Translations under genes and position numbers: made by a program
Notes under the pieces: model-generated
The model's database searches: none
Seen by the model: the letters and a program-made list of their open reading frames with translations, nothing else
What the model was told of the DNA's origin: nothing
In this document: positions 2,205 to 55,779 of the stretch, one piece after another
Numbering within the stretch: position 1 is the first letter of the stretch
Layout of the letters: each line of letters starts with the position of its first letter
NCBI GenBank assembly: GCA_035471805.1
Contig: DATIPS010000058.1
Coordinates: 1,533-65,532 of the forward strand
Source of the DNA: Acidimicrobiia bacterium
Lineage (GTDB): Bacteria; Actinomycetota; Acidimicrobiia; Spongiisociales; JAHEDJ01
Length of the DNA stretch: 64,000 nt
Direction: 5' to 3'

Positions 2205-3044
2205 ATGGCAACAAAGAAGACCCCTGCAACTGAAAAGCCTGCCGCCGCTGCCTCGAAGAAGGCGGCCGTTGCCAAGTCCGCAACCAAGACTGCGGCTGCC
2301 AAGAAATCTACAGCCGGGAAGCCGGCGGCGAAGAAGCCCGCGGCGGCCGCCAAACCCGCTGCTTCAAAGAAGACCACCGCCGCCAAGAAGCCCGCCGCCA
2401 AGAAGCCCGCGGCGGCCGCCAAGCCCGCTGCTTCCAAGAAGCCCGCCGCCAAGAAGACGGCGTCCGCCCCAACTCCCGCGGCCAAGCAGGCGGCCGTTGC
2501 TGAAGCTGCGGGCAAGACTGCTGCACCGCGGCGCAGGAAGAAGGCGTCGCCGTTCAGCGTCGGCGACAAGGTAGTCCATCCGCATCACGGAGCTGCCGTG
2601 ATCACCAAGAAGACCAAGCTTGAAGTTGCCGGAGAGAAGCGCGACTATTTCGTCCTGGCGATCGCCACCGACCAGCTCACCGTCTCCGTCCCCATCGACA
2701 ATATCGAGGAGACCATTCGGCCGGTCATCTCCAAAGCTGCCGCCAAGCGAGTCTTTCAGCTCTTCAAGGACGACCCGCAGGAGGCCGGAAGTAACTGGTC
2801 GCGTTGGTACAAGGTCCTGAACGAGAAGATGACGAGTGGCGACATTTACCAGGTTGCCGAAGTCGTCAGGGACCTGACGTTCGCCCAGCAGACGAAAGGC
2901 ATCTCGCCCGCACTCAAGCGCATGCTGAGCAAGGCCCGGCTCACCCTCACGAGCGAGCTCCAGTTCGCGCTGGCCATCGACGAAGAAGAGGCAACCAAGA
3001 GGCTCGACAGGGCGCTTCCCAAAGTAGAGATCGAAGAAAGTTAG
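2205..3044 (+). CDS. carD: CarD-family RNAP-binding transcription regulator with ~110-aa N-terminal Lys/Ala/Pro-rich histone-H1-like tail
   Basis: C-terminal ~165 aa match CarD (FSVGDKVVHPHHGAAVI... RNAP-interacting domain). No start codon between the KAP tail and the CarD core, so the tail is fused. Start chosen at ATG 2205 (MATKKTPATEK); in-frame ATG at 2130 lies inside disA. Confidence 0.8.
   Translation: MATKKTPATEKPAAAASKKAAVAKSATKTAAAKKSTAGKPAAKKPAAAAKPAASKKTTAAKKPAAKKPAAAAKPAASKKPAAKKTASAPTPAAKQAAVAEAAGKTAAPRRRKKASPFSVGDKVVHPHHGAAVITKKTKLEVAGEKRDYFVLAIATDQLTVSVPIDNIEETIRPVISKAAAKRVFQLFKDDPQEAGSNWSRWYKVLNEKMTSGDIYQVAEVVRDLTFAQQTKGISPALKRMLSKARLTLTSELQFALAIDEEEATKRLDRALPKVEIEES
2331..2468 (+). 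repeat. 69-nt tandem direct repeat (2 units, ~95% identical) inside carD 5' region encoding AAKKPAAKKPAAAAKPAASKK units
   Basis: aagaagcccgcggcggccgccaa(a/g)cccgctgcttc(a/c)aagaag at 2331 and again at 2400; coding, not CRISPR. Confidence 0.6.
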
Positions 3045-3055
3045 GGAGGGCCGCT

Positions 3056-4120
3056 GTGGTCGTTGAGGCCGTTCGCCTGCTGATCACGTTGGTCTTGACC
3101 GCCGTCGGTTTCCAGCTCGGAGATGCCCTTTCCGACCGTTATCCGGAAGCTTTTGGGTTGTCGGATACGGCGTCCGTGGTCGGTGCAGTCCTGGGGGCCG
3201 GAGTCGGCTATGTAGGCGGCGGGATATTCGGCCGCGCCTTTCGAGTCCGCCTCGAGGTAGCGCCGGAGCGATTGGTGGCACGGGTTTCCGGACCGAGCCT
3301 CTTTGCGGGGGCATTCGGGGTGGTAGCCGGCTTGCTCGTGGGGATTGTCATCTCGATTCCCGTCGTCCTGCTTCTTCCCCCGGCGATCGGCTGGCCGCTG
3401 GCGGCTCTCGCCGTACTGCTGCTCATCCTGATAGCCGTCCGGGTCTTCATGGCGCGAGCCGAGGATCTGCTCGCGGTAGCGGGTCTGCGCAGCCGGGGGC
3501 CTCTGCGGGCCGTCACTCTCGAGGAGGATGAGCGGGCACATCTGATCGACTCTTCGGCGGCCATCGACGGCCGCCTGCTGGCGCTCGTCCAAACCGGCCT
3601 GGTGGAAGGCCGATTGTGGGTCCCGGCTTTCGTCGTCGACGAGCTGCAGGGTCTCGCCGATGCCGGTGACGCCGGTCTGCGGCGACGCGGGCGTCGGGGA
3701 CTCGAGGCACTCGAAGCGCTGCACAGCGCTACGCCCGAGTTCATGGTTCTCGAAGAGACCGTGCCCGAGTTCGACGAGGTCGACGCCAAACTGCTCCAAC
3801 TCGCTTCCAGGGCCGGCGCCCGCCTGGTCACAACGGACTACAACCTTTCGAAGGCGGCGGAACTGCGCGGCATAGTCGTTCTCAATCCGAGCGTTGTGGG
3901 GGAGAAGCTGAAGCCGATCGTCAGCACCGGGGAGACTCTCACCGTGACCATCTCCAAGCCCGGCAAGGGAGCCGGGCAAGGTATCGCCTATCTGGACGAC
4001 GGGACGATGGTGGTTGTGGAGGAGGCAGGCAGCCTGGTAGGCCATGACATCGAGGTGGTGGTGACCAGTACTACGAGGACGGCAGTGGGCCGGATGTTGT
4101 TTGCCCGCCCCGCTTCATGA
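3056..4120 (+). CDS. PIN/TRAM domain membrane protein (YacL-like)
   Basis: GTG start 6 nt after GGGAGG RBS; N-terminal TM helices, PIN-like middle, C-terminal TRAM (GETLTVTISKPGKGAGQGIAYLDDGTMVVVE); same position as yacL between disA and ispD in Bacillus. Confidence 0.75.
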   Translation: MVVEAVRLLITLVLTAVGFQLGDALSDRYPEAFGLSDTASVVGAVLGAGVGYVGGGIFGRAFRVRLEVAPERLVARVSGPSLFAGAFGVVAGLLVGIVISIPVVLLLPPAIGWPLAALAVLLLILIAVRVFMARAEDLLAVAGLRSRGPLRAVTLEEDERAHLIDSSAAIDGRLLALVQTGLVEGRLWVPAFVVDELQGLADAGDAGLRRRGRRGLEALEALHSATPEFMVLEETVPEFDEVDAKLLQLASRAGARLVTTDYNLSKAAELRGIVVLNPSVVGEKLKPIVSTGETLTVTISKPGKGAGQGIAYLDDGTMVVVEEAGSLVGHDIEVVVTSTTRTAVGRMLFARPAS

Positions 4121-33705: not shown

Positions 33706-35100
33706 GTGGAACAACGCCGTCGCAGCTGGGCAGAGCCCTACAAGATCAAGATGGTTGAACCCATCAAGATGACCACCCGGGAGCATCGCGAGAAGGCAAT
33801 CGCCGAGGCCGGATACAACAGCTTCCTGCTCCGCTCCGAGGATGTCTACATAGATCTACTCACGGACTCCGGCACCTCGGCGATGTCCGATTATCAGTGG
33901 GCCGGTCTGATGCTCGGCGATGAGGCCTACGCCGGTTCCAAGAGCTTCTACCACCTGGTCGATGCCGTGCAAGAGGTGTACGGCTATCCCGAGTTGATCC
34001 CGACGCATCAGGGCCGTGGCGCCGAGCACATTCTGAGCCAGCTGATGATCAAGCCGGGCGATTACGTGCCGGGCAACATGTATTTCACTACAACTCGTTT
34101 CCACCAGGAGCACGCCGGCGGGATCTTCGTCGATGTGATAATCGATGAGGCCCATATGCCTTCGGTCGAGCACCCGTTCAAGGGCAACGTCGATCTGGGC
34201 AAACTCCAGAGCTTGATCGACGAGGTGGGAGCGGACCGGATCCCCTATATATCGGTTGAGACGAACGTCAACATGGCCGGCGGCCAGCCGCTGTCCATGG
34301 CGAATCTCAGAGCGACTCACGAACTGTGCAAGAGAAACGGCATCCCGGTGATGCTTGACGCCACCCGTGCGGTTGAGAACGCCTACTTCATCCAGCAGCG
34401 TGAGGGCGGTTATGAGGACAAGTCGGTCAAAGAGATCATGCTCGAGATCTGTTCCTATTCGGACGGCGCAACCGTGTCGTCCAAGAAGGACAACCTCGTC
34501 AACATCGGAGGGTTCCTGGCAGTGCGCGACCCGGATCTGGCCACTCGAGCCCGTGCGATGCTCGTCCAGTTCGAAGGTCTGCACACCTACGGGGGAATGG
34601 CGGGCCGTGACATGGAAGCGCTTGCCCGCGGTATCTACGAGATGGTTGAAACCGATGATCATGCAAGGGCTCGAGTAGGTCAGGTCGAATACCTCGGGAA
34701 CGCGTTGCTGAAGGCAGGTATCCCTATAGTGATGCCGGTCGGCGGCCACGGGATCTTCATGGACGCCGCTGCGATCCTGCCGCACCTTGCGCAGGACCAG
34801 TTTCCTGCTCAAGCATTGACGGCGGCGCTGTACGTCGACTCGGGTGTACGCGGGATGGAGCGTGGAGTTGTCTCCGCCGGGCGGGATCCGAATACCGGCG
34901 ACCATCGCTACCCGAAGCTCGAACTCGTGCGGATGGCCATTCCCCGCCGGGTCTACACGCAGGCTCATATGGACGTCACCGCCGAGTCGGTCATCGAGGT
35001 CTACGAGAACAGAGAAAACGTCGGCGGTCTGAAGTTCACCTACGAACCGCCGGAACTCCGTTTCTTCCAAGCCCGCTTCGAAAAAGTAGCGAGTCGCTAG
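33706..35100 (+). CDS. tryptophanase / tyrosine phenol-lyase (PLP beta-eliminating lyase)
   Basis: GTG start after AGGAGG; N-terminus EPYKIKMVEPIKMTTRE parallels TnaA EPFRIRVIEPVKRTTRA; PLP-lysine region SSKKDNLVNIGGFLAV. Confidence 0.8.
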   Translation: MEQRRRSWAEPYKIKMVEPIKMTTREHREKAIAEAGYNSFLLRSEDVYIDLLTDSGTSAMSDYQWAGLMLGDEAYAGSKSFYHLVDAVQEVYGYPELIPTHQGRGAEHILSQLMIKPGDYVPGNMYFTTTRFHQEHAGGIFVDVIIDEAHMPSVEHPFKGNVDLGKLQSLIDEVGADRIPYISVETNVNMAGGQPLSMANLRATHELCKRNGIPVMLDATRAVENAYFIQQREGGYEDKSVKEIMLEICSYSDGATVSSKKDNLVNIGGFLAVRDPDLATRARAMLVQFEGLHTYGGMAGRDMEALARGIYEMVETDDHARARVGQVEYLGNALLKAGIPIVMPVGGHGIFMDAAAILPHLAQDQFPAQALTAALYVDSGVRGMERGVVSAGRDPNTGDHRYPKLELVRMAIPRRVYTQAHMDVTAESVIEVYENRENVGGLKFTYEPPELRFFQARFEKVASR

Positions 35101-46954: not shown

Positions 46955-49738
46955 TCAATGGGCCCTGTAAGCCTCCGGGCTTGGCTTCACCGGGCGATCC
47001 AGCCAGAGCGGTCGGCGGGTTCCATCGGGCCCCGGGCCCGGCTTCGTCTGCGCCAACCATTCCCTGTAGACCTCGAAACTCTTGGAAGTGTCCACAACCA
47101 CGTCACCGTACTGATCGCCCGGCTCGGCCTTCGTGATCCGCACCCGCTGGTGCCAGGCGTGCATGCCGGACACGGGATCGGGATGCGTCGGGAAGGTGAG
47201 ATTCTGGTGAACGCCCGCATCCTTCCACCAGATGCGCTCCGAGTCGGGATCGTCCGATTTGAAAGGTTCGATTCCTTTCTTCTGACGCATCATCCACGTG
47301 CTCGAACCGGTCTTCGTGATGTCCACCAGCGCCGATGACCACCGCTCGTTTCCGAAATCGTCCGAAAGGCGCCAACGACCGAGGTGGTGGCTCGCAGCCA
47401 CGACGCCCGGGCGTATGCCTTCCGTCCGCCAGGCACGAATCACGAAGTGGCCGTTGTCGGTGTTGACCCGCACCAGGTCACCGGTGTCAAGATCGAGCGC
47501 GTCGGCATCGACCGGGTTTATCCATAGAGGGTGGCCGTGGCTGATCTCATACAGGTACTTGGCGTTTCCGGATCTCGTGTGAATGAGCGTCGGCAAGCGA
47601 AAGATCGGCAGAAGGATCCTCTCGTTGCCGGCCATGTCCATTTCTCTCCAGTAGACGTGCGTCTTGAGATACGAGGGGATCGCCTGGTCTGGCCAGCCCC
47701 ATTCGTGCATCGTCTTCGACCACCACTCCAGTTTCTTGGACGGCGATTTGAATCCGGTGACTACATCCGAGTGGACCCGCACGCCCACCGGCTGGCCCTG
47801 TCTCCGGGCAATGCCGTTCATGCCGACGTCGTCGTAGGCGACCGGTCGCTCGTGGACCTCATAGATGTCCTTCTCCACCTCGACCGCGCCGTACTTGCGC
47901 ATGAACTCGAGCGGTGTGATCCCTTCAGCGGCCGCCTTGTCGGGGAGGCCGGGCACGGAGTTGTCGAACATCCACCCGTAGTATTCGTCGACCGAGATGG
48001 GCCGGTTCGGGTCGTTGGGCGACTGGAACCATTGCTTGATGCTCAGTTCGCCGTCCGGGTCGATCCGCCACGACAAGTCGATCCAGAACTCGGTCTCTTC
48101 CCAAACCTCACCCGGATTGGCCTCGTACGTGCGCTCGTATACCTTGCCGTCTCGTTCGCCGGCCACGCGCAGGACGGGTTGGCGGAAACCAAGCCACTGC
48201 CCGGCATGGGTTTCGTAGGAGTGCGTGTCGTGTCTCTCGGCACTCACACCCATCGGCAGGACGTAATCGGCGTACCAGGCCGTCTCCGACCAGGTGGGGG
48301 TGAGGGCGACGTGGAGGCCCACCATGTCCTCGTCTGTCAGCACTTCTATCCAGCTGAACCCATCGGGGTTGGTCCAAACGGGGTTGTATACGCGGGTGAA
48401 GTAGGTGTCGAGTTTCCCCCGACCTTCCTTGAGGAAGTAGGGGAGCAATATGCTCATCTCGTGGTGAGCCAGCGGATACTCGGGCGGCCACAGGAGCTCA
48501 TTCCACCGGTTGTGGGTGGGCGGCATGTTCCAGTGGGTCGGCTTGAACTTGTCCCAGGCGCTCGGCGAGGTGCCCCCCTTGGTGCCGACCGAGCCCGTGA
48601 GGACGTGCAGGAACCACAGGGTCCGGGAGACTTGCCAACCACCCAGATTGCCCGATCCTGCCGAACGCCAGGTGTGACTGGCGAACCGGTGTCCGGCCTC
48701 GGCGATCCCCCTGGCGACCTCCACGAGACGGTCGGCATCGACACCCGACTCCTCGGCGGCCCACTCAGGGGTGTAGGAGGCGTAGGTCTCCTTCAGCACT
48801 GCGATGAACTCGCTGAACGTGCAGGGTCGATCGGGGTAGACCTCGGTGAGGGTCTGCTCCCAGTTGACCCAACGCTCCACGAAGGAGCGATCGATGGCGT
48901 CCCATTCGAGGAGCAGCCGGGCGATGGCGAGCAACATTGCTGCCTCGGTTCCCGGATAGGGCGATAGCCAGATGTCCGACATGGAGGCGGTGTTTGACAG
49001 CCGCGGGTCGATGGTGGCGAGTTTCGCACCCGCCTGCTTGCCCTCCATGATCCGTTGTGCGTGAGGGTTGAAATAGTGGCCGGTTTCCAGGTGAGAGGAC
49101 AACAGCAGAATGAATCGGGCGTTGGCGAAGTCGGCGGAAGGGCGGTCGTGTCCCATCCACATGGCGTAACCAACCCGGGCACCGGACGAGCAGATATTGG
49201 TGTGCGAGTTGTGGCCGTCGACCCCCCAGGCCTTCAGAGTGCGATCCATGAAGCCGTCCTCGCCGGGACGGCCGACGTGATACATGATCTCGTCGTTGCG
49301 ATCCTCCTGGAGCGCCTTGCGCATCCGGCCCGCGATGTCGTCGAGTGCTTCGTCCCAGGAGACCCGCTCCCACTCGCCCGAACCGCGCGGACCCTTGCGC
49401 CGCATCGGGTACAAGATGCGTTCGGGGTCGTAGACCTGGTTGATCGTTGCCGGGCCCTTGGCGCAGTTGCGTCCGCGTGATCCCGGGTGTTCGGGGTTCC
49501 CTTCGAAGCGGCGAATCTCCCCCGTGTCCTTGTCGATCACGGCAAGTAGACCGCAGGCGGATTCGCAGTTGAAACAGGTGGTCGGCACCATACGCACGTT
49601 GTGCTTGACCTTCTCCGGCCAGGCCTGTGCGTCGTACTCCTCCCAATCGTCCCACCGGTCGGGTGGCGGGAAACTGGTGAGTTCGGTTCCCGGCAGCAAT
49701 CGGGGAATCTCGAGGTCCGGCTCTCGGTGTGCGGTCAT
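46955..49738 (-). CDS. molybdopterin-guanine-dinucleotide oxidoreductase catalytic subunit (PsrA/PhsA/SoeA-like), no twin-arginine signal
   Basis: 927 aa; N-terminal CFNCESACGLL [4Fe-4S] motif; MopB domains; no RRxF in first 40 aa. Confidence 0.85.
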   Translation of the reverse strand: MTAHREPDLEIPRLLPGTELTSFPPPDRWDDWEEYDAQAWPEKVKHNVRMVPTTCFNCESACGLLAVIDKDTGEIRRFEGNPEHPGSRGRNCAKGPATINQVYDPERILYPMRRKGPRGSGEWERVSWDEALDDIAGRMRKALQEDRNDEIMYHVGRPGEDGFMDRTLKAWGVDGHNSHTNICSSGARVGYAMWMGHDRPSADFANARFILLLSSHLETGHYFNPHAQRIMEGKQAGAKLATIDPRLSNTASMSDIWLSPYPGTEAAMLLAIARLLLEWDAIDRSFVERWVNWEQTLTEVYPDRPCTFSEFIAVLKETYASYTPEWAAEESGVDADRLVEVARGIAEAGHRFASHTWRSAGSGNLGGWQVSRTLWFLHVLTGSVGTKGGTSPSAWDKFKPTHWNMPPTHNRWNELLWPPEYPLAHHEMSILLPYFLKEGRGKLDTYFTRVYNPVWTNPDGFSWIEVLTDEDMVGLHVALTPTWSETAWYADYVLPMGVSAERHDTHSYETHAGQWLGFRQPVLRVAGERDGKVYERTYEANPGEVWEETEFWIDLSWRIDPDGELSIKQWFQSPNDPNRPISVDEYYGWMFDNSVPGLPDKAAAEGITPLEFMRKYGAVEVEKDIYEVHERPVAYDDVGMNGIARRQGQPVGVRVHSDVVTGFKSPSKKLEWWSKTMHEWGWPDQAIPSYLKTHVYWREMDMAGNERILLPIFRLPTLIHTRSGNAKYLYEISHGHPLWINPVDADALDLDTGDLVRVNTDNGHFVIRAWRTEGIRPGVVAASHHLGRWRLSDDFGNERWSSALVDITKTGSSTWMMRQKKGIEPFKSDDPDSERIWWKDAGVHQNLTFPTHPDPVSGMHAWHQRVRITKAEPGDQYGDVVVDTSKSFEVYREWLAQTKPGPGPDGTRRPLWLDRPVKPSPEAYRAH

Positions 49739-49750
49739 GCGATCCCTTTC

Positions 49751-51319
49751 CTACGAGAGCGGAACACTCTGCCCGGCTTTCACGAATGCGTCGTCGGCGA
49801 ACCAGATCCCCGCCGACGCGGCTAATCCTCCAACGGCTCCTATCCATGTGGCTCCTCCGGCGAGCATGATGGAGCCGAGAGCTATCGGAACGACCACGCC
49901 GATCAGCTGTCCACCGATCCACCATTCCCTGGCGAAGTGGCCGCGGGTCATGTGGTGCATGGCCGCCTCGATGTTCCTGGTCGGGTGAGGTGTAGTCAGT
50001 TCGGCCAGTGCAATCAATCCGAGAACCGAGCAACCGATCACGAGCGTCCATCCGAATGCTCGCTCGGCCGTTTCCCCGACATCGAAGAACAGCGAGGCGA
50101 TCAAGGCCACGCCGCCGCCTGCCGCGAAAGCTCCCGCAATCATGTGGTAGAGCAGCACCGGACTCTGCCACAGGTCACGTGCTTCGGCCTGGCCGAACAG
50201 GAAGGCGGTGTATCCGGCGGTGGCGATGCCCAGCGGCAGTCCGATCCATGCCATGATCTCGACCAGGCCGTCCAACTCGAACAATCCCGCCAGGAACCAC
50301 ACGGCCAGGACGGCCGCATAGGCGCTCAGAATGTAGGCGCCCCGCACCAGCCACGATCCCGGGTTGCCTTTGATGATCAGGTAGTGGAATCGATCGGGGC
50401 GTTTGAGGTCCCAGATCAGCAGCACGCCGGTCAGCGCCAGAAACAATCCGGCGACCAGCGGTGTCGTCCAACGCATCCAGTTGCTTGTGAGTGAGGCGCC
50501 GAACAGCATTGCCATCGCAACGGCGATCGCCAGCCCGGCCGCGATACCTTTCGTGAGGAAGTAGGCGGACACGCGCCATCCCCACGGTGCCGGGTGATCG
50601 GTGTTGTATACGACGCGCGGTGGAGCGGCAGCATGATCCGAGGCCGCCGAAGGAGTCTGCCGGCGGCCGTTGGAGCCGGGGGTCAGGTCGACTGCCATGA
50701 AAGACCCTTCCGATGCTGGTTCGCGCCAAATGCCGCCATCGTGGAGGCTCGTCGCCGCCAGGGGATCGATGCTGGCGCCGTCTGCCCCCAGGTAGAAGAG
50801 GTTGGGGCCGGTTCCCTGTTCGGGAGCGCGGACGGTGGTGACCCGCGTCCGCACCAACCCGGCGATCTCAGTTGTGGGATCGTCCAGGTCGCCGGCGACG
50901 ATGGCGTGTTCGGGACAGACGACGACGCAAGCCGGCTCGAGGCCCACCTCGACGCGGTGGACGCAGTAGTTGCACTTCTGAGCGGTGTGCTCGTTGGGGT
51001 CGATGTAGAGCGAGTCGTACGGGCAAGCCTGCATGCACGATTTGCACCCGATGCAGCGGCTGGTATCGAAGTCGACGATGCCGTCGGAGCGCTTGTTGAG
51101 CGCAGTGGTCGGGCAGATCGCCACGCACGGTGCGTCGGTGCAATGGTTGCACCGCATTACCGAGAAGAAACGCTTGGTTTCCGGCCAGGCGCCTTTCTCT
51201 ACGTACTTGACCCATGTGCGGTTGACCCCCAGCGGAACCCCGTGCTCGGTCTTACAGGCGACCGTGCATGCGTGGCAGCCAATGCATTTCGTCTGGTCGA
51301 TGACAAATCCGTACCTCAG
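49751..51319 (-). CDS. fused 4Fe-4S ferredoxin (PsrB/NrfC/SoeB-like) and NrfD/PsrC-like membrane anchor
   Basis: First-ATG ORF starts at 51157 (MRCNHC). In-frame upstream sequence encodes RYGFVIDQTKCIGCHACTVACK, the canonical first Cys cluster. True start is probably a non-ATG codon near 51319 (CTG after GGGAGGG); upstream TAG at 51338. Confidence 0.7.
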   Translation of the reverse strand: MRYGFVIDQTKCIGCHACTVACKTEHGVPLGVNRTWVKYVEKGAWPETKRFFSVMRCNHCTDAPCVAICPTTALNKRSDGIVDFDTSRCIGCKSCMQACPYDSLYIDPNEHTAQKCNYCVHRVEVGLEPACVVVCPEHAIVAGDLDDPTTEIAGLVRTRVTTVRAPEQGTGPNLFYLGADGASIDPLAATSLHDGGIWREPASEGSFMAVDLTPGSNGRRQTPSAASDHAAAPPRVVYNTDHPAPWGWRVSAYFLTKGIAAGLAIAVAMAMLFGASLTSNWMRWTTPLVAGLFLALTGVLLIWDLKRPDRFHYLIIKGNPGSWLVRGAYILSAYAAVLAVWFLAGLFELDGLVEIMAWIGLPLGIATAGYTAFLFGQAEARDLWQSPVLLYHMIAGAFAAGGGVALIASLFFDVGETAERAFGWTLVIGCSVLGLIALAELTTPHPTRNIEAAMHHMTRGHFAREWWIGGQLIGVVVPIALGSIMLAGGATWIGAVGGLAASAGIWFADDAFVKAGQSVPLS

Positions 51320-51375
51320 CTTGCCCTCCCAGGTTCGCTACAGAGCCCAATTCCCACCCGAGGTCTCGTCGGTTC

Positions 51376-51600
51376 CTACGCTTTCTCGACCACGAAGTGA
51401 TACTCGCTGTCCTGTTCGAACTGTTCCTTCAACGGGTTGCCCGTGTCCTTCGACCAGGCCGGGATGTCGCTGAGGGCGCCGCGGTCGGTTGCGACGAGTT
51501 CGATTGTCTGGCCGGCGGCGGCACCGCTGACGGCCTGACTGAGTTTGAGAACGGGCATCGGGCATTGAAGATTGCGAGCGTCGACGATGATGTCGGCCAT
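51376..51600 (-). CDS. tusA: TusA-family sulfurtransferase
   Basis: 74 aa, CPMP (CPxP) active-site motif at residues 13-16. Confidence 0.75.
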   Translation of the reverse strand: MADIIVDARNLQCPMPVLKLSQAVSGAAAGQTIELVATDRGALSDIPAWSKDTGNPLKEQFEQDSEYHFVVEKA

Positions 51601-51612
51601 GTGCTCTCCTTT

Positions 51613-52140
51613 CTAGATGAACAAGCTGATCGAAGCCTCTTTCATGAGGCTAATTGCGGAACCCGCCCCGACGGGTGCGGAGAGGCCGTCGATGAGATGC
51701 TCATCCTTGAGGCCCATCAAATCCATCGTCATCTGGCACGGCCAGAGGTTCACTCCGAGGCTGATCGCCATTTCGAGCAACTCCTGTACGGAAGCGACGT
51801 TGTGGTCTTCCGCCAGGCCGCGCATCATTGCCGGGCCCATGCCGGCGAAATGGAGCTTGGACAATCCGAGTTTGGACGGCGACGCGTTGTGAAACATCGA
51901 AAGCATCTTCTGGCGCCAGTCGTCGCCCGTCAGGCCGGCATCCTCCTTCTTGAGGATGCCGAGTCCCCAGAAGGTGAAGAAGACCGTGACATCCATGCCG
52001 TAGGCGGCACCGGTGGTGGCCAGGATGAGCACCGGCCAGGCCTTGTCCAGATCGCCCGAAGCGGCGATGATGACCATCTTCTCCTTCTCAGGAGTCGTCT
52101 TATCGGCGACAGGTTCGGTCTGATGAGCAGTATCGGTCAT
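51613..52140 (-). CDS. DsrE/DsrF-family sulfur-relay protein
   Basis: AGGAGG RBS then MTDTAHQ; DsrE-like Rossmann fold. Confidence 0.6.
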   Translation of the reverse strand: MTDTAHQTEPVADKTTPEKEKMVIIAASGDLDKAWPVLILATTGAAYGMDVTVFFTFWGLGILKKEDAGLTGDDWRQKMLSMFHNASPSKLGLSKLHFAGMGPAMMRGLAEDHNVASVQELLEMAISLGVNLWPCQMTMDLMGLKDEHLIDGLSAPVGAGSAISLMKEASISLFI

Positions 52141-52172
52141 CGTCCCTCCTTCTCGTGGGCTCGTCCCCCTGC

Positions 52173-52184
52173 GCGCATATGCGC
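52173..52184. promoter_or_regulatory. perfect 12-bp palindrome GCGCATATGCGC in divergent dsrE / arsR promoter region
   Basis: candidate operator for the adjacent ArsR-family regulator. Confidence 0.35.
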
Positions 52185-52283
52185 CTCGGCGAATCTTGGT
52201 ACGGCCGCTTGCGGGCGTCAACCGGTTCCCGGGGTTTTCTGAGCGAGCACGATGAGGTCGGACCGGTCGGCTATGTTCTTGAG

Positions 52284-52613
52284 ATGCAATCCGTCGCCGA
52301 CGAGCTAACCGCGCTGCACGCCAGGGTCTGCAAGGGCATAGCGGACCCCAAGCGCCTCCTCATCCTCAACGCCCTCCGTGGCGGTGAGCGCTCCGTGATG
52401 GAGCTGTGCGACGATCTGGGCTTGCCTCAGGCCAATGTATCGCAACATCTCGCGGTGCTTCGGGACCGCGGTCTGGTCTGCACCCGCAGAGATGCTCAAC
52501 GGGTGTTCTACTCGTTGACTTCGGTCAAGATCGTCGAAGCCATCGATCTCTTGCGCGAGGTGATGGCAGAGCAGGCAGGCTCGGGTAGCGAGTCGCGCGC
52601 AGCCGGCCGGTAG
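52284..52613 (+). CDS. ArsR/SmtB-family transcriptional regulator (possible BigR/SqrR/CstR-like sulfur sensor)
   Basis: wHTH LADPKRLLILNAL...ELC signature; Cys at positions 16, 42, 66 of the short form; start at ATG 52284. Confidence 0.75.
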   Translation: MQSVADELTALHARVCKGIADPKRLLILNALRGGERSVMELCDDLGLPQANVSQHLAVLRDRGLVCTRRDAQRVFYSLTSVKIVEAIDLLREVMAEQAGSGSESRAAGR

Positions 52614-52676
52614 CCGGAGTCCCGGCCTCCAGACGCTCAAGAACCCCTTGCCGCGCGTCTTGCCCTCCCATAAGAT

Positions 52677-52715
52677 ACATGCGCCGATATGCATGTCAGG
52701 CACCGAGATTGCCTG
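52677..52715. promoter_or_regulatory. two adjacent inverted repeats (ACATGC-n8-GCATGT; CAGGCA-n7-TGCCTG) directly upstream of the RBS of the rhodanese-MBL gene
   Basis: candidate operator / translational hairpin; overlaps GAGGAGGGA RBS region. Confidence 0.3.
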
Positions 52716-52730
52716 TGAGGAGGGAGACCA

Positions 52731-53858
52731 ATGCCCGGCTCGATTACCACCGACGATCTTGCCGCGCGGATCGAGGATCCCGAGAACGCCCCCTACATCC
52801 TCGACTTGCGTGCCGGGGACCAGTTCGAACGCTGGCGCATCGAGGGCAAACTGGCGCTCGACACGGTGAATGTGCCTTACTGGACGGCGCTTGGAGACAT
52901 CGAAGGCATCGCCGCCACGCTTCCCGACGATCGCGACGTGATAGCTATCTGCGCGCACGGAGGATCCTCGGGCATGGTGGTTGAGATGATGGACAAGCCG
53001 AACGTCAAGAACCTCGATGGTGGCATGGACCTGTGGGCTAACACGCTCATACCGCGAGTCCTTTTCGACGACGGCACTCACTTCGTGATCCAGCTGGATC
53101 GAATGGCAAAGGCGTGCCTGTCCTATGCCGTCGGTGCGCGCGGTCACAACATGGCCGTCATTGATCCGGCCGCCGACATCGACCGCTACCTGGCGCTGGC
53201 CGAGAGCTACGGGTCGAAACTGTCCGACATCTTCGATACCCATCTCCACGCCGACCACATATCGATCGGCGCTGCGATGGCCGAGCGCACCGGCGGCACC
53301 TACCGGATCGCGCCGGGCGATGCGGAGGACGCGGTCTTCGAGTACTCGCCTCTGGAGGACGGCCAGGTGTTCACGTTCGGCGAGCTTGAGATGATCGTAC
53401 GGTCGGTGGCGACGCCCGGGCATACTCCCGGATCGACATCACTCGAAGTGCACGGACGATTCCTGATGACGGGTGATGCCGTGTTCGTGACCGGCGTTGG
53501 ACGGCCGGATCTCGGCGGCGAGACCGAGCCCTGGGCCAGGGACCTGTTCAACACGATTCATGTCAAGTTGTCGCCGCTCGATCCGAACCTCGAGGTCTGC
53601 CCCGCGCACTACACGAGCCGCGCCGAATCGCGTGACGACGGGACCTTGCGCCGCAATCTCGGGGATCTGCTCGAGAATGATCCGGTGGTCTCGATTGCGG
53701 ACGAGTCGGAGTTCGTTGATTTCGTGGTGTCCCACCTCGGCGAGCCCCCGGCGATCTACAACGATATCCGAAAGGTGAACCTGGGCTTGCTCAGGCCCGA
53801 CGCAGAGAAGGCGAAGGAACTCGAAGTCGGCCGCAATGAGTGCGCCCTTTCCAAGTGA
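52731..53858 (+). CDS. rhodanese-MBL fold fusion protein (persulfide dioxygenase-like)
   Basis: N-terminal rhodanese with active-site Cys (ICAHGGSSG); C-terminal MBL fold with HLHADH (HxHxDH) motif. Confidence 0.8.
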   Translation: MPGSITTDDLAARIEDPENAPYILDLRAGDQFERWRIEGKLALDTVNVPYWTALGDIEGIAATLPDDRDVIAICAHGGSSGMVVEMMDKPNVKNLDGGMDLWANTLIPRVLFDDGTHFVIQLDRMAKACLSYAVGARGHNMAVIDPAADIDRYLALAESYGSKLSDIFDTHLHADHISIGAAMAERTGGTYRIAPGDAEDAVFEYSPLEDGQVFTFGELEMIVRSVATPGHTPGSTSLEVHGRFLMTGDAVFVTGVGRPDLGGETEPWARDLFNTIHVKLSPLDPNLEVCPAHYTSRAESRDDGTLRRNLGDLLENDPVVSIADESEFVDFVVSHLGEPPAIYNDIRKVNLGLLRPDAEKAKELEVGRNECALSK

Positions 53859-53896
53859 CGGGTGGCCGGCTCCGGAACCCGGGTAACCTCTCTGTC

Positions 53897-54244
53897 GTGA
53901 GCATTCCCCGGAGCCCGATTCTTCCGAACAACGGAAGCCGTGCGCGCGACCATCTCGCCAACGAGCGGACCTACCTCGCCTGGGTGAGGACTGCGCTCGG
54001 CATCATCGGTCTGGGTGTCCTCGTGGAGAAGCTCATTGAGTTGCAGGGCGTGGCGGCGGAAATCGCCGGGTTGAGCATGGTGGCCATGGGGGCTGCGGCG
54101 CTCGTTTACGCAACATTTCGCTACGAGCGAGTGCGGAGGCAGCTCGAAGAAGGGATGTTCCAGACCGCATCCACCGGCCCGATCGTGATCACTGCGCTGG
54201 GGCTGATCATGACGGTCGTCGCCGTCGTTTTCGTCCTGCTGTAG
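53897..54244 (+). CDS. DUF202 (YidH) family small membrane protein
   Basis: LANERTYLAWVRT signature followed by two TM helices. Confidence 0.6.
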   Translation: MSIPRSPILPNNGSRARDHLANERTYLAWVRTALGIIGLGVLVEKLIELQGVAAEIAGLSMVAMGAAALVYATFRYERVRRQLEEGMFQTASTGPIVITALGLIMTVVAVVFVLL

Positions 54245-54252
54245 GCGGAGAC

Positions 54253-55779
54253 TTGACGCCGCCGACAGGAAAGAGAGGCCGCCCGCGAACGGGGGACGTC
54301 ATCGCCGGGCTGAGTGTTGCCCTCATCCTCGTCCCGCAATCGCTGGCCTACGCCGAACTGGCCGGTTTGCCGCCCTTCGTTGGCCTGTACGCGGCTGCGC
54401 TGCCGCCCCTTGCCGCCGCCTTCCTCGCTTCATCCCCGTATCTCCAGACAGGGCCGGTGGCGATGACGGCCTTGCTGACCTTCGGAGCTCTGAGAGGGAT
54501 AGGGGCCGAGCCGGGCACCGCCGAGTACGTGGCGCTGGCCGCCTTGCTGGCGCTCATCGTTGGGGCGGTGCGGACCTTGATCGGGGTCGCCCGCGGCGGG
54601 TTTCTCGCCTACTTCATGTCGCAGCCCGTACTGATCGGGTTCACCTCTGCCGCGGCAATCCTCATTCTCTCCTCACAGTTCCCCACCGCGGTCGGCGTGT
54701 CGGCCCCGGCCTCCAGAATCCTCGGAAAGCTCTGGTGGACACTGACCCACTTCTCAGAATGGGATCCGGCGGCCGTCGTAATATCGCTGACGACCATCGG
54801 GCTGGTTGTAGGGGGGCGGAGGCTGCATCGGCTTTTCCCCGGCGTGTTGGTGGCAGTCATCGCAGGGATCCTCTACAGCACGATGTCCGGCTACGAAGGA
54901 TTCATCGTCGGAGACGTTCCGGCCGGCCTACCGCCCTTTTCGCTCGACCTGCCGTGGCATTCATTGCCGTCGCTGCTCGTCAGCGGTGTGGTCATTGCAC
55001 TCGTCGGGTTTGCCGAAGCGGCCGCCATCTCGCGCACGTTCGCCGCCCAGGATCGTCAGACCTGGAACCCGAGCAAGGAGTTCGTGAGCCAGGGCATCGC
55101 CAATCTCGCCTCCGGCATCTCGGGCGGCTTTCCGGTGGGCGGGTCGTTCTCCCGCTCGTCCGTGAATCGTCTGGCCGGTGGCAAGACCCGTTGGTCCGGT
55201 GCCGTCACCGGGATTGCGGTGCTGGCCTTCCTCCCGGTCGCCGGCGTGCTTTCTCCGCTACCCCAGGCAGTTCTCGCAGCCATCGTGATTTCTGCAGTCG
55301 CCCGCCTCATCCGGATCTCGCCTTTGTGGTCGATGTGGAGCTATTCGAAACCCCAGACCACGGTGCTGTGGACGACTTTCCTCCTGACTCTGATTCTCAG
55401 CCCTCGCATCGAGATCGCCGTGATTGTCGGGATCGGGCTCGGAATCCTCATTCACCTGTGGCGCGAGATCAAAATCGGCGTGCAAGCGAGCTACGACGGC
55501 GGGACGTTGCATCTGACACCGACCGGAGTCTTGTACTTCGGCTCTGCGCCGCAGCTGAATGAAGCGCTGCTGGCGTTGTTGACGAGCCATCCTGAGGCCA
55601 GAGCCATGGTATTCGATCTCGGCAATCTGGGTCGGATCGACTACACCGGCGCGCTCGTCCTCAAGAGCGTGGCGGACGAGGCAGTGGCTGCAGGACTCGA
55701 GATCTCATTCGAGAATGTTCCGCCGCAAACGAGGCGGATACTGGGCCGCGTGCTCGAGCAGAAGCTGCCGATTCCCTAG
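54253..55779 (+). CDS. SulP-family anion permease with C-terminal STAS domain
   Basis: TTG start; GLSVALILVPQSLAYA SulP N-terminal motif; C-terminal STAS. Confidence 0.8.
   Translation: MTPPTGKRGRPRTGDVIAGLSVALILVPQSLAYAELAGLPPFVGLYAAALPPLAAAFLASSPYLQTGPVAMTALLTFGALRGIGAEPGTAEYVALAALLALIVGAVRTLIGVARGGFLAYFMSQPVLIGFTSAAAILILSSQFPTAVGVSAPASRILGKLWWTLTHFSEWDPAAVVISLTTIGLVVGGRRLHRLFPGVLVAVIAGILYSTMSGYEGFIVGDVPAGLPPFSLDLPWHSLPSLLVSGVVIALVGFAEAAAISRTFAAQDRQTWNPSKEFVSQGIANLASGISGGFPVGGSFSRSSVNRLAGGKTRWSGAVTGIAVLAFLPVAGVLSPLPQAVLAAIVISAVARLIRISPLWSMWSYSKPQTTVLWTTFLLTLILSPRIEIAVIVGIGLGILIHLWREIKIGVQASYDGGTLHLTPTGVLYFGSAPQLNEALLALLTSHPEARAMVFDLGNLGRIDYTGALVLKSVADEAVAAGLEISFENVPPQTRRILGRVLEQKLPIP

Follow-up and report, generated by a model that had tools for sequence, protein, structure and literature searches.

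Which genes does a small ArsR-family protein control when it lies between two divergent sulfur operons, and by which residue could it sense its signal? This question is raised by a 64,000-nucleotide stretch of DNA from an Acidimicrobiia bacterium (GenBank assembly GCA_035471805.1, contig DATIPS010000058.1, positions 1,533 to 65,532 of the forward strand; hereafter the window). In this window an arsR gene is flanked on one side by dsrE, the first gene of a leftward operon, and on the other side by rhd, which encodes a fusion of rhodanese and metallo-beta-lactamase (MBL) domains. A preliminary description of the window had pointed to palindromic candidate operators next to arsR and to a regulator with three cysteines. 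Since conserved putative operators were found in both promoter regions that flank the gene, the ArsR protein very probably controls both operons, as that description had suggested. We assign both sulfur operons to its regulon with high confidence. The operators, promoter positions, regulon and cysteine pattern described below come from comparative sequence analysis.

A pattern scan in which each bacterial or archaeal species was represented by a single genome detected at least 594 stretches encoding relatives. The best 80 of these at least 594 loci, nearly all from Acidimicrobiia metagenome-assembled genomes, were used for the DNA comparison (individual loci are given L numbers), and about 46 of them showed the same gene order. 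Protein comparisons were made with 121 close homologs, 46 same-synteny orthologs and the 150 best representatives of clusters at 50% identity (38-76% identity).

Putative operators and promoters around arsR

Alignment of both intergenic regions revealed a 20-bp inverted repeat with the consensus A[T/C]ATGCG-N6-CGCAT[A/G]T and the core AT[G/T]C-N8-G[C/A]AT. The following elements of the window are compared with it:

52177..52196, no strand: putative operator O1, ATATGCGCCTCGGCGAATCT, a 7-6-7 repeat ATATGCG-N6-CGAATCT in agreement with 12 of the 14 consensus positions
52677..52696, no strand: putative operator O2, ACATGCGCCGATATGCATGT, the repeat ACATGC-n8-GCATGT of the preliminary description, matching the consensus at 11 of 14 positions
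52173..52184, no strand: 12-bp palindrome GCGCATATGCGC, made up of the left half-site of O1 and four lineage-specific bases
52697..52715, plus strand: lineage-specific repeat CAGGCA-n7-TGCCTG, part of the rhd 5' leader

Nearly all loci of the same synteny have an equivalent of O1 upstream of arsR, at a distance of 81-146 bp, and 45 of the 80 loci carry a site within 260 bp upstream of the gene. An O2-type site is conserved downstream of arsR, in the arsR-rhd spacer, in 28 of the 80 loci. The rest of the 575 kb covered by these loci contained only nine hits, five of which lie ahead of displaced regulon genes, namely rhd (L006 and L023), dsrE (L059), sulP (L016) and, at a distance of 229 bp, psrBC (L047). 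In L006 and L023 rhd is displaced by about 2.5 kb, and the operator site has been relocated along with it.

An alignment of 72 sites showed A3, T4, A17 and T18 to be invariant, with C6 in 71 and G15 in 70 of the sites, a free choice of the six central bases and mostly G (49 sites) or T (20 sites) at position 5. The spacing is fixed, as ATATGC-N8-GCATAT occurred 38 times near arsR and twice elsewhere. An unbiased count of 6-mers likewise returned ATATGC as the top word (34 of 38 regulatory regions versus none of 38 coding controls), followed by the ribosome-binding site (RBS), CATAGT and TTGACA. Within the window, three matches to the 7-6-7 consensus at 11 or more of 14 positions compare with about 0.9 expected, and two of the three flank arsR. 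The third, at 34138, lies within a long open reading frame (ORF) and was treated as a chance match. A repeat search of the window also paired the O1 and O2 stretches (repeat family D5).

All three repeats named in the preliminary description, the 12-bp palindrome and the two inverted repeats near the rhd RBS, were found exactly where it had placed them. In the 64-kb window, which has a G+C content of 63%, there are 31 perfect 12-bp palindromes, 36 perfect 6-n8-6 repeats and 23 perfect 6-n7-6 repeats, with about 26 expected for each class. None of the three classes is rarer than chance in the window, and conservation alone separates signal from noise. By this measure ACATGC-n8-GCATGT is conserved throughout the family as part of the 7-6-7 repeat, whereas the other two sequences are not. 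The palindrome GCGCATATGCGC is perfectly symmetric, lies within the divergent promoter region and shares its right 8 bp with O1; an exact copy was present, however, in only two of the 81 loci fetched, those of the closest relatives (L001 and L002). In the window this is the only exact copy, and the number of matches with up to two mismatches (six, with 3.5 expected) is at the level of chance. CAGGCA-n7-TGCCTG recurs at the equivalent position in L003 only, and in most orthologs the distance from O2 to the RBS is too short for a repeat of this type. RNA folding of the 58 nt that contain it (52683-52740) was not better than that of shuffled sequences (z = -0.49). We thus consider it highly improbable that GCGCATATGCGC and CAGGCA-n7-TGCCTG, both of kinds that occur at chance frequency in the window, are functional operators in their own right.

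Conservation of the flanking sequences also led us to the following promoter elements:

52192..52221, minus strand: putative dsrE promoter, with -35 TTGACG at 52216-52221, an 18-nt spacer and -10 AAGATT at 52192-52197
52648..52676, plus strand: putative rhd promoter, with -35 TTGCCG at 52648-52653, a 17-nt spacer and -10 TAAGAT at 52671-52676
52272..52277, plus strand: -10-like element TATGTT of arsR, 6 nt ahead of the ATG, corresponding to the ortholog block GGCATAGT

Most orthologs carry TTGAC(A/G), about 18 nt and [A/T]AGAT[T/G] on the minus strand ahead of dsrE, the latter hexamer coinciding with the operator's first bases, and TGTCAA is enriched in the regulatory regions over the coding controls (22 versus 2). 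On the rhd side, orthologs show TTGnnn, 17-18 nt and TAnnnT, which ends 0-4 nt ahead of the operator. Because AAGATT overlaps O1, this operator would cover the dsrE promoter at its -10 element and start region. O2 begins at 52677, directly after the -10 element of rhd, and would therefore cover the transcription start. From the operator positions at both promoters, repression by occlusion is predicted. Ahead of arsR itself, orthologs share the conserved block GGCATAGT about 7-8 nt before the ATG, ACTATG is enriched (23 versus 0) and a Shine-Dalgarno sequence is absent. This suggests a leaderless arsR mRNA, transcribed from a promoter of its own that neither operator would cover.

Several further observations concern the operators and their surroundings. 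The -35 region of dsrE (52216-52229) forms part of GTCAACCGGTTCC, within which lies the 8-bp palindrome AACCGGTT; a looser form, TGTCAAnnnnTTC, is seen again in orthologs. We read GTCAACCGGTTCC as the -35 element, although it may alternatively be a second binding site. About 190 bp upstream of arsR, L008 and L047 carry ATATGCGC-AGATAC-GCGCATAT, in which 10 bp instead of 8 separate ATATGC from GCATAT; the operator may be present here with a variant spacing. The subgroup formed by these two loci adjoins a more distant DsrE/TusA pair. In L059 the dsrE-arsR spacer measures 718 bp (about 3020-3731) versus about 140 bp and contains an ORF; short tandem repeats of the GCTGA(C/T)T type flank the spacer, and both operator copies stay beside dsrE.

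Paralogs of the regulator with 63-76% identity and an identical recognition helix, PQANVSQHLAVLR, are encoded outside the sulfur locus (L012, L014, L015, L018, L024, L035 and about 20 more). No 7-6-7 operator was found within 300 bp of these paralogs in the approximately 25 loci. Neighbours checked include a MoxR AAA ATPase in L018 and a GltD/SudA-like Fe-S flavoprotein together with a Rieske protein in L024.

The regulator and its cysteines

52284..52613, plus strand: arsR, encoding a 109-aa ArsR/SmtB winged-helix protein (Pfam HTH_5, NF033788)

The protein exceeded the thresholds of the ArsR superfamily models (PF01022: 60.8 bits, cut-off 22; NF033788: 83.3 bits, cut-off 55). Its start at 52284 is backed by an aligned methionine as first residue in 115 of the 121 homologs. 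The AlphaFold2 (AF2) model (predicted local distance difference test, pLDDT, 83.5) showed an α1-α2-α3-α4-β1-β2-α5 topology with α1 formed by residues 4-16. The best fold matches were NolR, HlyU, Rv0081 (TM-score 0.73), BigR and SqrR, with a Foldseek probability of 1.00 for NolR, HlyU, BigR and SqrR; in the PDB comparison NolR matched with E = 5.9e-15. In the Foldseek alignments the nearest solved relatives, which are these five and YgaV, showed 31-45% identity.

BigR/SqrR-type persulfide sensors (cluster 4 of the sequence similarity network) have a conserved cysteine in α2 and another in α5, which join in an intraprotomer polysulfide bridge (PMC10509353). A canonical sensor of this type would fit the identical fold, the presence of BigR, SqrR, HlyU and YgaV among the nearest PDB relatives, an equal operator geometry and a similar regulon. 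The defining positions, however, are occupied differently. HMMER alignment to HlyU of Vibrio vulnificus placed Asn29 at the position of the α2 cysteine, Ala95 at that of the α5 cysteine and Cys16 opposite a leucine, and none of the 121 homologs or 46 orthologs has a cysteine at either of the two BigR/SqrR positions. The BigR equivalog model (NF040642) scored 63.3 bits against a cut-off of 155, with 48-67 bits for distant members of the clade described below. The canonical α2/α5 mechanism is thus refuted at the sequence level and has virtually no probability left, in agreement with the earlier view that the protein is not a textbook BigR or SqrR. When the window protein and ten distant clade members were scored with the NCBIfam equivalogs BigR, CmtR, TsoR, SdpR, PagR and Rv2640c, no cut-off was reached. 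For TsoR and SuoR we found nothing usable in the literature.

The three cysteines of the preliminary description, Cys16, Cys42 and Cys66, are all present and there is no C-terminal cysteine, but only Cys16 is conserved across orthologs. According to the AF2 model, α1 ends with Cys16, while Cys42 is placed in the middle of α3 and Cys66 in β1. Cys16 was found in every close homolog (121/121) and every same-synteny ortholog (46/46), Cys42 in 89 of the 121 homologs and 29 of the 46 orthologs, with valine, threonine or alanine elsewhere, and Cys66 in the window protein only (0/46 orthologs). The family signature is therefore a single cysteine. The remaining 17 of the 46 orthologs, which share the same operons and operators, have one cysteine in total.

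The 150 representatives extended this pattern. Cys16 is present in 132 of them (88%), down to 38% identity, at a position where other ArsR proteins have leucine, phenylalanine or tyrosine. In 57 representatives, 52 of which also have Cys16, a second cysteine occupies position 87 at the N-terminal end of α5; Cys42 is found in 15, and 50 are single-cysteine proteins. In the Acidimicrobiia subfamily position 87 is methionine, isoleucine or valine, often with Cys42 in α3 instead, which suggests that the partner cysteine was replaced during evolution.

The preliminary description had left room for a metal sensor. Such a protein could bind Zn, Cd, Cu or As at an α3N-like site made up of His12 and Cys16 of α1 and Cys42, Asp43 and Asp44 of α3. 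His12 is near-invariant in the subfamily, and Cys42 stands at the α3 'ELC' position, which also serves ArsR, CadC and SmtB. A few distant clade members moreover have a DPVC motif in a C-terminal tail, which we take to be YHS/TRASH-like. Against these features stand the absence of Cys42 from 17 of the 46 orthologs, the variability of positions 43 and 44 and the replacement of His12 by glutamine or another residue in 63 of the 150 representatives. Metal-sensing ArsR/SmtB proteins have either a set of α5 ligands (Asp/His/His/His(Glu)) or a CXC motif in α3 combined with Cys/His ligands near the N-terminus; here the α5 sequence KIVEAIDLLREVMAEQ has no histidine, and the α3 motif ELCDD holds one cysteine and no CXC. 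A trigonal As(III) site of three cysteines is not conserved either, as Cys16 alone is retained and Cys66 is unique, and no ars genes lie nearby. The conserved neighbours are all genes of sulfur metabolism, with no metal transporter among them. A metal or metalloid sensor is very unlikely on these grounds.

Proteins with Cys16 extend well beyond the Acidimicrobiia subfamily. We define the clade proposed here by a sulfur-gene neighbourhood and, where α1 ends, by the motif (L/M)(H/Q)Ax(V/I/F)C(K/R/Q), which reads LHARVCKG in the window protein. Sulfur genes were present in seven of the eight informative contexts of distant Cys16-bearing relatives; two further distant representatives, on contigs too short for context, are outside these eight. 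The neighbours comprise an SQR/FCSD-like flavoprotein, an SQR-like flavoprotein with DsrE, a rhodanese, a Psr/Phs-like operon with a rhodanese, a cysteine desulfurase with DsrE, a sulfite-oxidase-family enzyme and a YgaP-like membrane domain. No NCBIfam equivalog covers the clade, as judged from the window protein and the ten distant members scored. We tentatively propose, as possible rather than probable, that Cys16 defines a large uncharacterised ArsR clade, matched by at least 594 stretches in the pattern scan, whose members would sense reactive sulfur species with one cysteine in α1. A resolving cysteine would be optional, and its position variable (in α3 in Acidimicrobiia, in other lineages at the N-terminal end of α5, or absent), giving a 1-Cys/2-Cys mechanism distinct from the α2/α5 dithiol. 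The window protein is a candidate founder of such an α1-Cys class of sulfur-responsive ArsR repressors.

The two sulfur operons

The genes on either side of arsR are as follows:

51613..52140, minus strand: dsrE, at the head of the leftward operon, encoding a DsrE2-like sulfur carrier (Pfam DrsE_2, E = 2.5e-48; PDB 3pnx, annotated as putative DsrE sulfurtransferase)
51376..51600, minus strand: tusA, TusA-like sulfur carrier (Pfam TusA, E = 4.4e-21)
49751-51157, minus strand: fused Fe-S/NrfD membrane subunit (Pfam, NCBIfam)
46955-49738, minus strand: Psr/Phs/Ttr-like molybdopterin oxidoreductase (Pfam, NCBIfam)
52731..53858, plus strand: rhd, N-terminal rhodanese fused to a persulfide-dioxygenase-type metallo-beta-lactamase (Pfam Rhodanese, Lactamase_B)
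53840-54244, plus strand: DUF202 membrane protein, downstream in the rhd operon (Pfam)
54253-55779, plus strand: SulP/STAS anion transporter, downstream in the rhd operon (Pfam)

The leftward operon thus runs from dsrE2 through tusA and the Fe-S/NrfD subunit to the molybdopterin oxidoreductase, divergent from the rightward genes arsR, rhd, DUF202 and SulP/STAS. The spacer between the start codons of dsrE (ATG at 52140 on the minus strand, preceded by a GGAGG RBS) and arsR (ATG at 52284) measures 143 bp. The ATG of rhd at 52731 follows the RBS GAGGAGGGA at 52717-52725. The arrangement PsrA-PsrBC-TusA-DsrE opposite ArsR-Rhd/MBL-SulP is common to about 46 of the 80 loci; the genes for the molybdoenzyme and the Fe-S/NrfD subunit are arranged with tusA and dsrE in about 40 loci, and SulP follows rhd in many orthologous loci. 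The closest PDB relatives of Rhd are the dioxygenase-rhodanese fusions 3tp9 and BpPRF (5ve3), followed by ETHE1 (4chl) and 3r2u. The solved proteins closest to its metallo-beta-lactamase domain are persulfide dioxygenases. An Rfam scan of 51300-53000 matched no family.

The molybdopterin subunit lacks a twin-arginine motif ahead of its Fe4S4 domain (N-terminus MTAHREPDLEIPRLLPG). The Psr/Phs-like enzyme may accordingly be oriented towards the cytoplasm, as would suit a partnership with the cytoplasmic carriers TusA and DsrE. The Fe-S and NrfD-type domains form one ORF of 468 aa, and its alignment to TtrB-type proteins is limited to their C-terminal half. Between this gene and tusA a gap of about 220 bp (51158-51375) contains no assigned ORF; orthologs have a counterpart of about 245 bp.

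Proposed mechanism and known systems

We slightly favour, over all other explanations taken together, a dimeric repressor that acts on both operons through O1 and O2 and is released by sulfane sulfur at Cys16. In this proposal the ArsR/SmtB dimer would bind the two 20-bp operators. Bound at O1 it would block RNA polymerase at the promoter of the dsrE2-tusA-Fe-S/NrfD-molybdoenzyme operon, and bound at O2 at that of the rhodanese-persulfide dioxygenase-DUF202-SulP operon, while arsR would be transcribed from its own, probably leaderless, promoter outside both operators. Sulfane sulfur, donated by persulfides, polysulfides or a persulfidated TusA/DsrE carrier as candidate sources, would modify Cys16 at the C-terminal end of α1 and cause derepression. 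Cys42 in α3 could serve as a resolving partner and form a di- or polysulfide bridge with Cys16, which would act alone in the one-third of orthologs without Cys42. Repression, effector and thiol chemistry are inferred here. The regulon and the clade-wide gene neighbourhood give us moderate confidence in a repressor responsive to reactive sulfur species. That Cys16 is the sensing residue and Cys42 an optional resolving partner is a hypothesis drawn from the conservation pattern and from an analogy with 1-Cys and 2-Cys OhrR proteins.

Several results weigh against this proposal. A strict E. coli-type promoter scan misses the dsrE, rhd and arsR promoters described above; the output of the promoter and terminator scan was one unrelated promoter-like hit on the minus strand and one weak hairpin. 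The roughly 25 close paralogs that share the recognition helix of the regulator lack such an operator in their vicinity. Cys16 lies at the distal end of α1, so that a Cys16-Cys16' link across the dimer presumably is unlikely. Position 16 usually belongs to the hydrophobic core in ArsR proteins (leucine in NolR and HlyU), and Cys16 could therefore be buried and structural. Finally, 17 of the 46 orthologs have a single cysteine, whereas all characterised persulfide sensors rely on two (PMC10509353).

The last two points also speak for a repressor that binds O1 and O2 and is released without cysteine chemistry. It could be released by a partner protein or by sulfite, thiosulfate or tetrathionate bound non-covalently, or it could have no inducer at all, as proposed for NolR or Rv0081, with Cys16 in a structural role. 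Inducer sites may indeed be absent altogether from some ArsR proteins (PMC10509353). However, Cys16 is retained in 88% of the representatives although leucine, phenylalanine or tyrosine is tolerated there in other ArsR proteins. The partner cysteine moreover occurs at two positions (at 87 in 57 of the 150 representatives and at 42 in the Acidimicrobiia subfamily), as expected of a reactive cysteine with variable resolving partners. We regard such a non-thiol or inducer-free repressor as unlikely, but as a real possibility.

With operators, promoters, regulon and natural 1-Cys/2-Cys variants defined by comparison, the question of how one cysteine would tell sulfane sulfur from other oxidants becomes directly testable. 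Sulfur-responsive regulons could also be annotated in Acidimicrobiia and related, mostly uncultured lineages.

Among known systems, the solved ArsR structures closest in both sequence and fold are those of NolR and Rv0081. NolR, which has leucine at position 16, regulates nodulation genes and Rv0081 hypoxia genes, with no known thiol switch in either. The MarR-family peroxide sensor OhrR occurs in 1-Cys and 2-Cys forms with an invariant sensing cysteine and a lineage-dependent resolving cysteine. This pattern resembles that of Cys16, Cys42 and Cys87, but the analogy would extend to chemistry only, as OhrR differs in fold, oxidant and regulon. We take the regulon of CstR, a persulfide sensor of the CsoR family from Staphylococcus aureus, to be much alike, with a rhodanese-TusA-DsrE fusion (cstA), a dioxygenase-rhodanese fusion (cstB) and a sulfite or thiosulfate exporter. 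Its host is also Gram-positive; CstR itself, however, is an unrelated all-helical CsoR tetramer whose dithiol spans two protomers.

All characterised persulfide-sensing regulators, of the ArsR, CsoR and FisR types, are described as dithiol-based, and the ArsR members all have one α2/α5 pair (PMC10509353), in agreement with the work on SoxR/sHdrR (PMC10451225). SqrR of Rhodobacter capsulatus, BigR of Xylella and Acinetobacter, SoxR/sHdrR of Hyphomicrobium, HlyU and YgaV have the ArsR/SmtB winged-helix fold in common with the window protein. The likeness extends to the 4-N8-4 operator geometry and, as predicted here, to the repression of genes for sulfide or persulfide detoxification or oxidation, including a dioxygenase-rhodanese fusion and transporters. 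By sequence comparison the half-sites differ, the SqrR box being ATTC-N8-GAAT (preprint 10.64898/2026.05.15.721447) and the core found here AT[G/T]C-N8-G[C/A]AT. The hosts of the SqrR group are Proteobacteria, in contrast to the Acidimicrobiia host of the window protein, in which the α2 and α5 cysteines are replaced by Asn29 and Ala95 and the conserved cysteine lies in α1, a partner in α3 being optional. The locus is a phylogenetically well-supported candidate counter-example to dithiol sensing by an α2/α5 pair, alike in operator geometry and type of regulon and different in its putative sensing residue, which is often the only cysteine of the protein.

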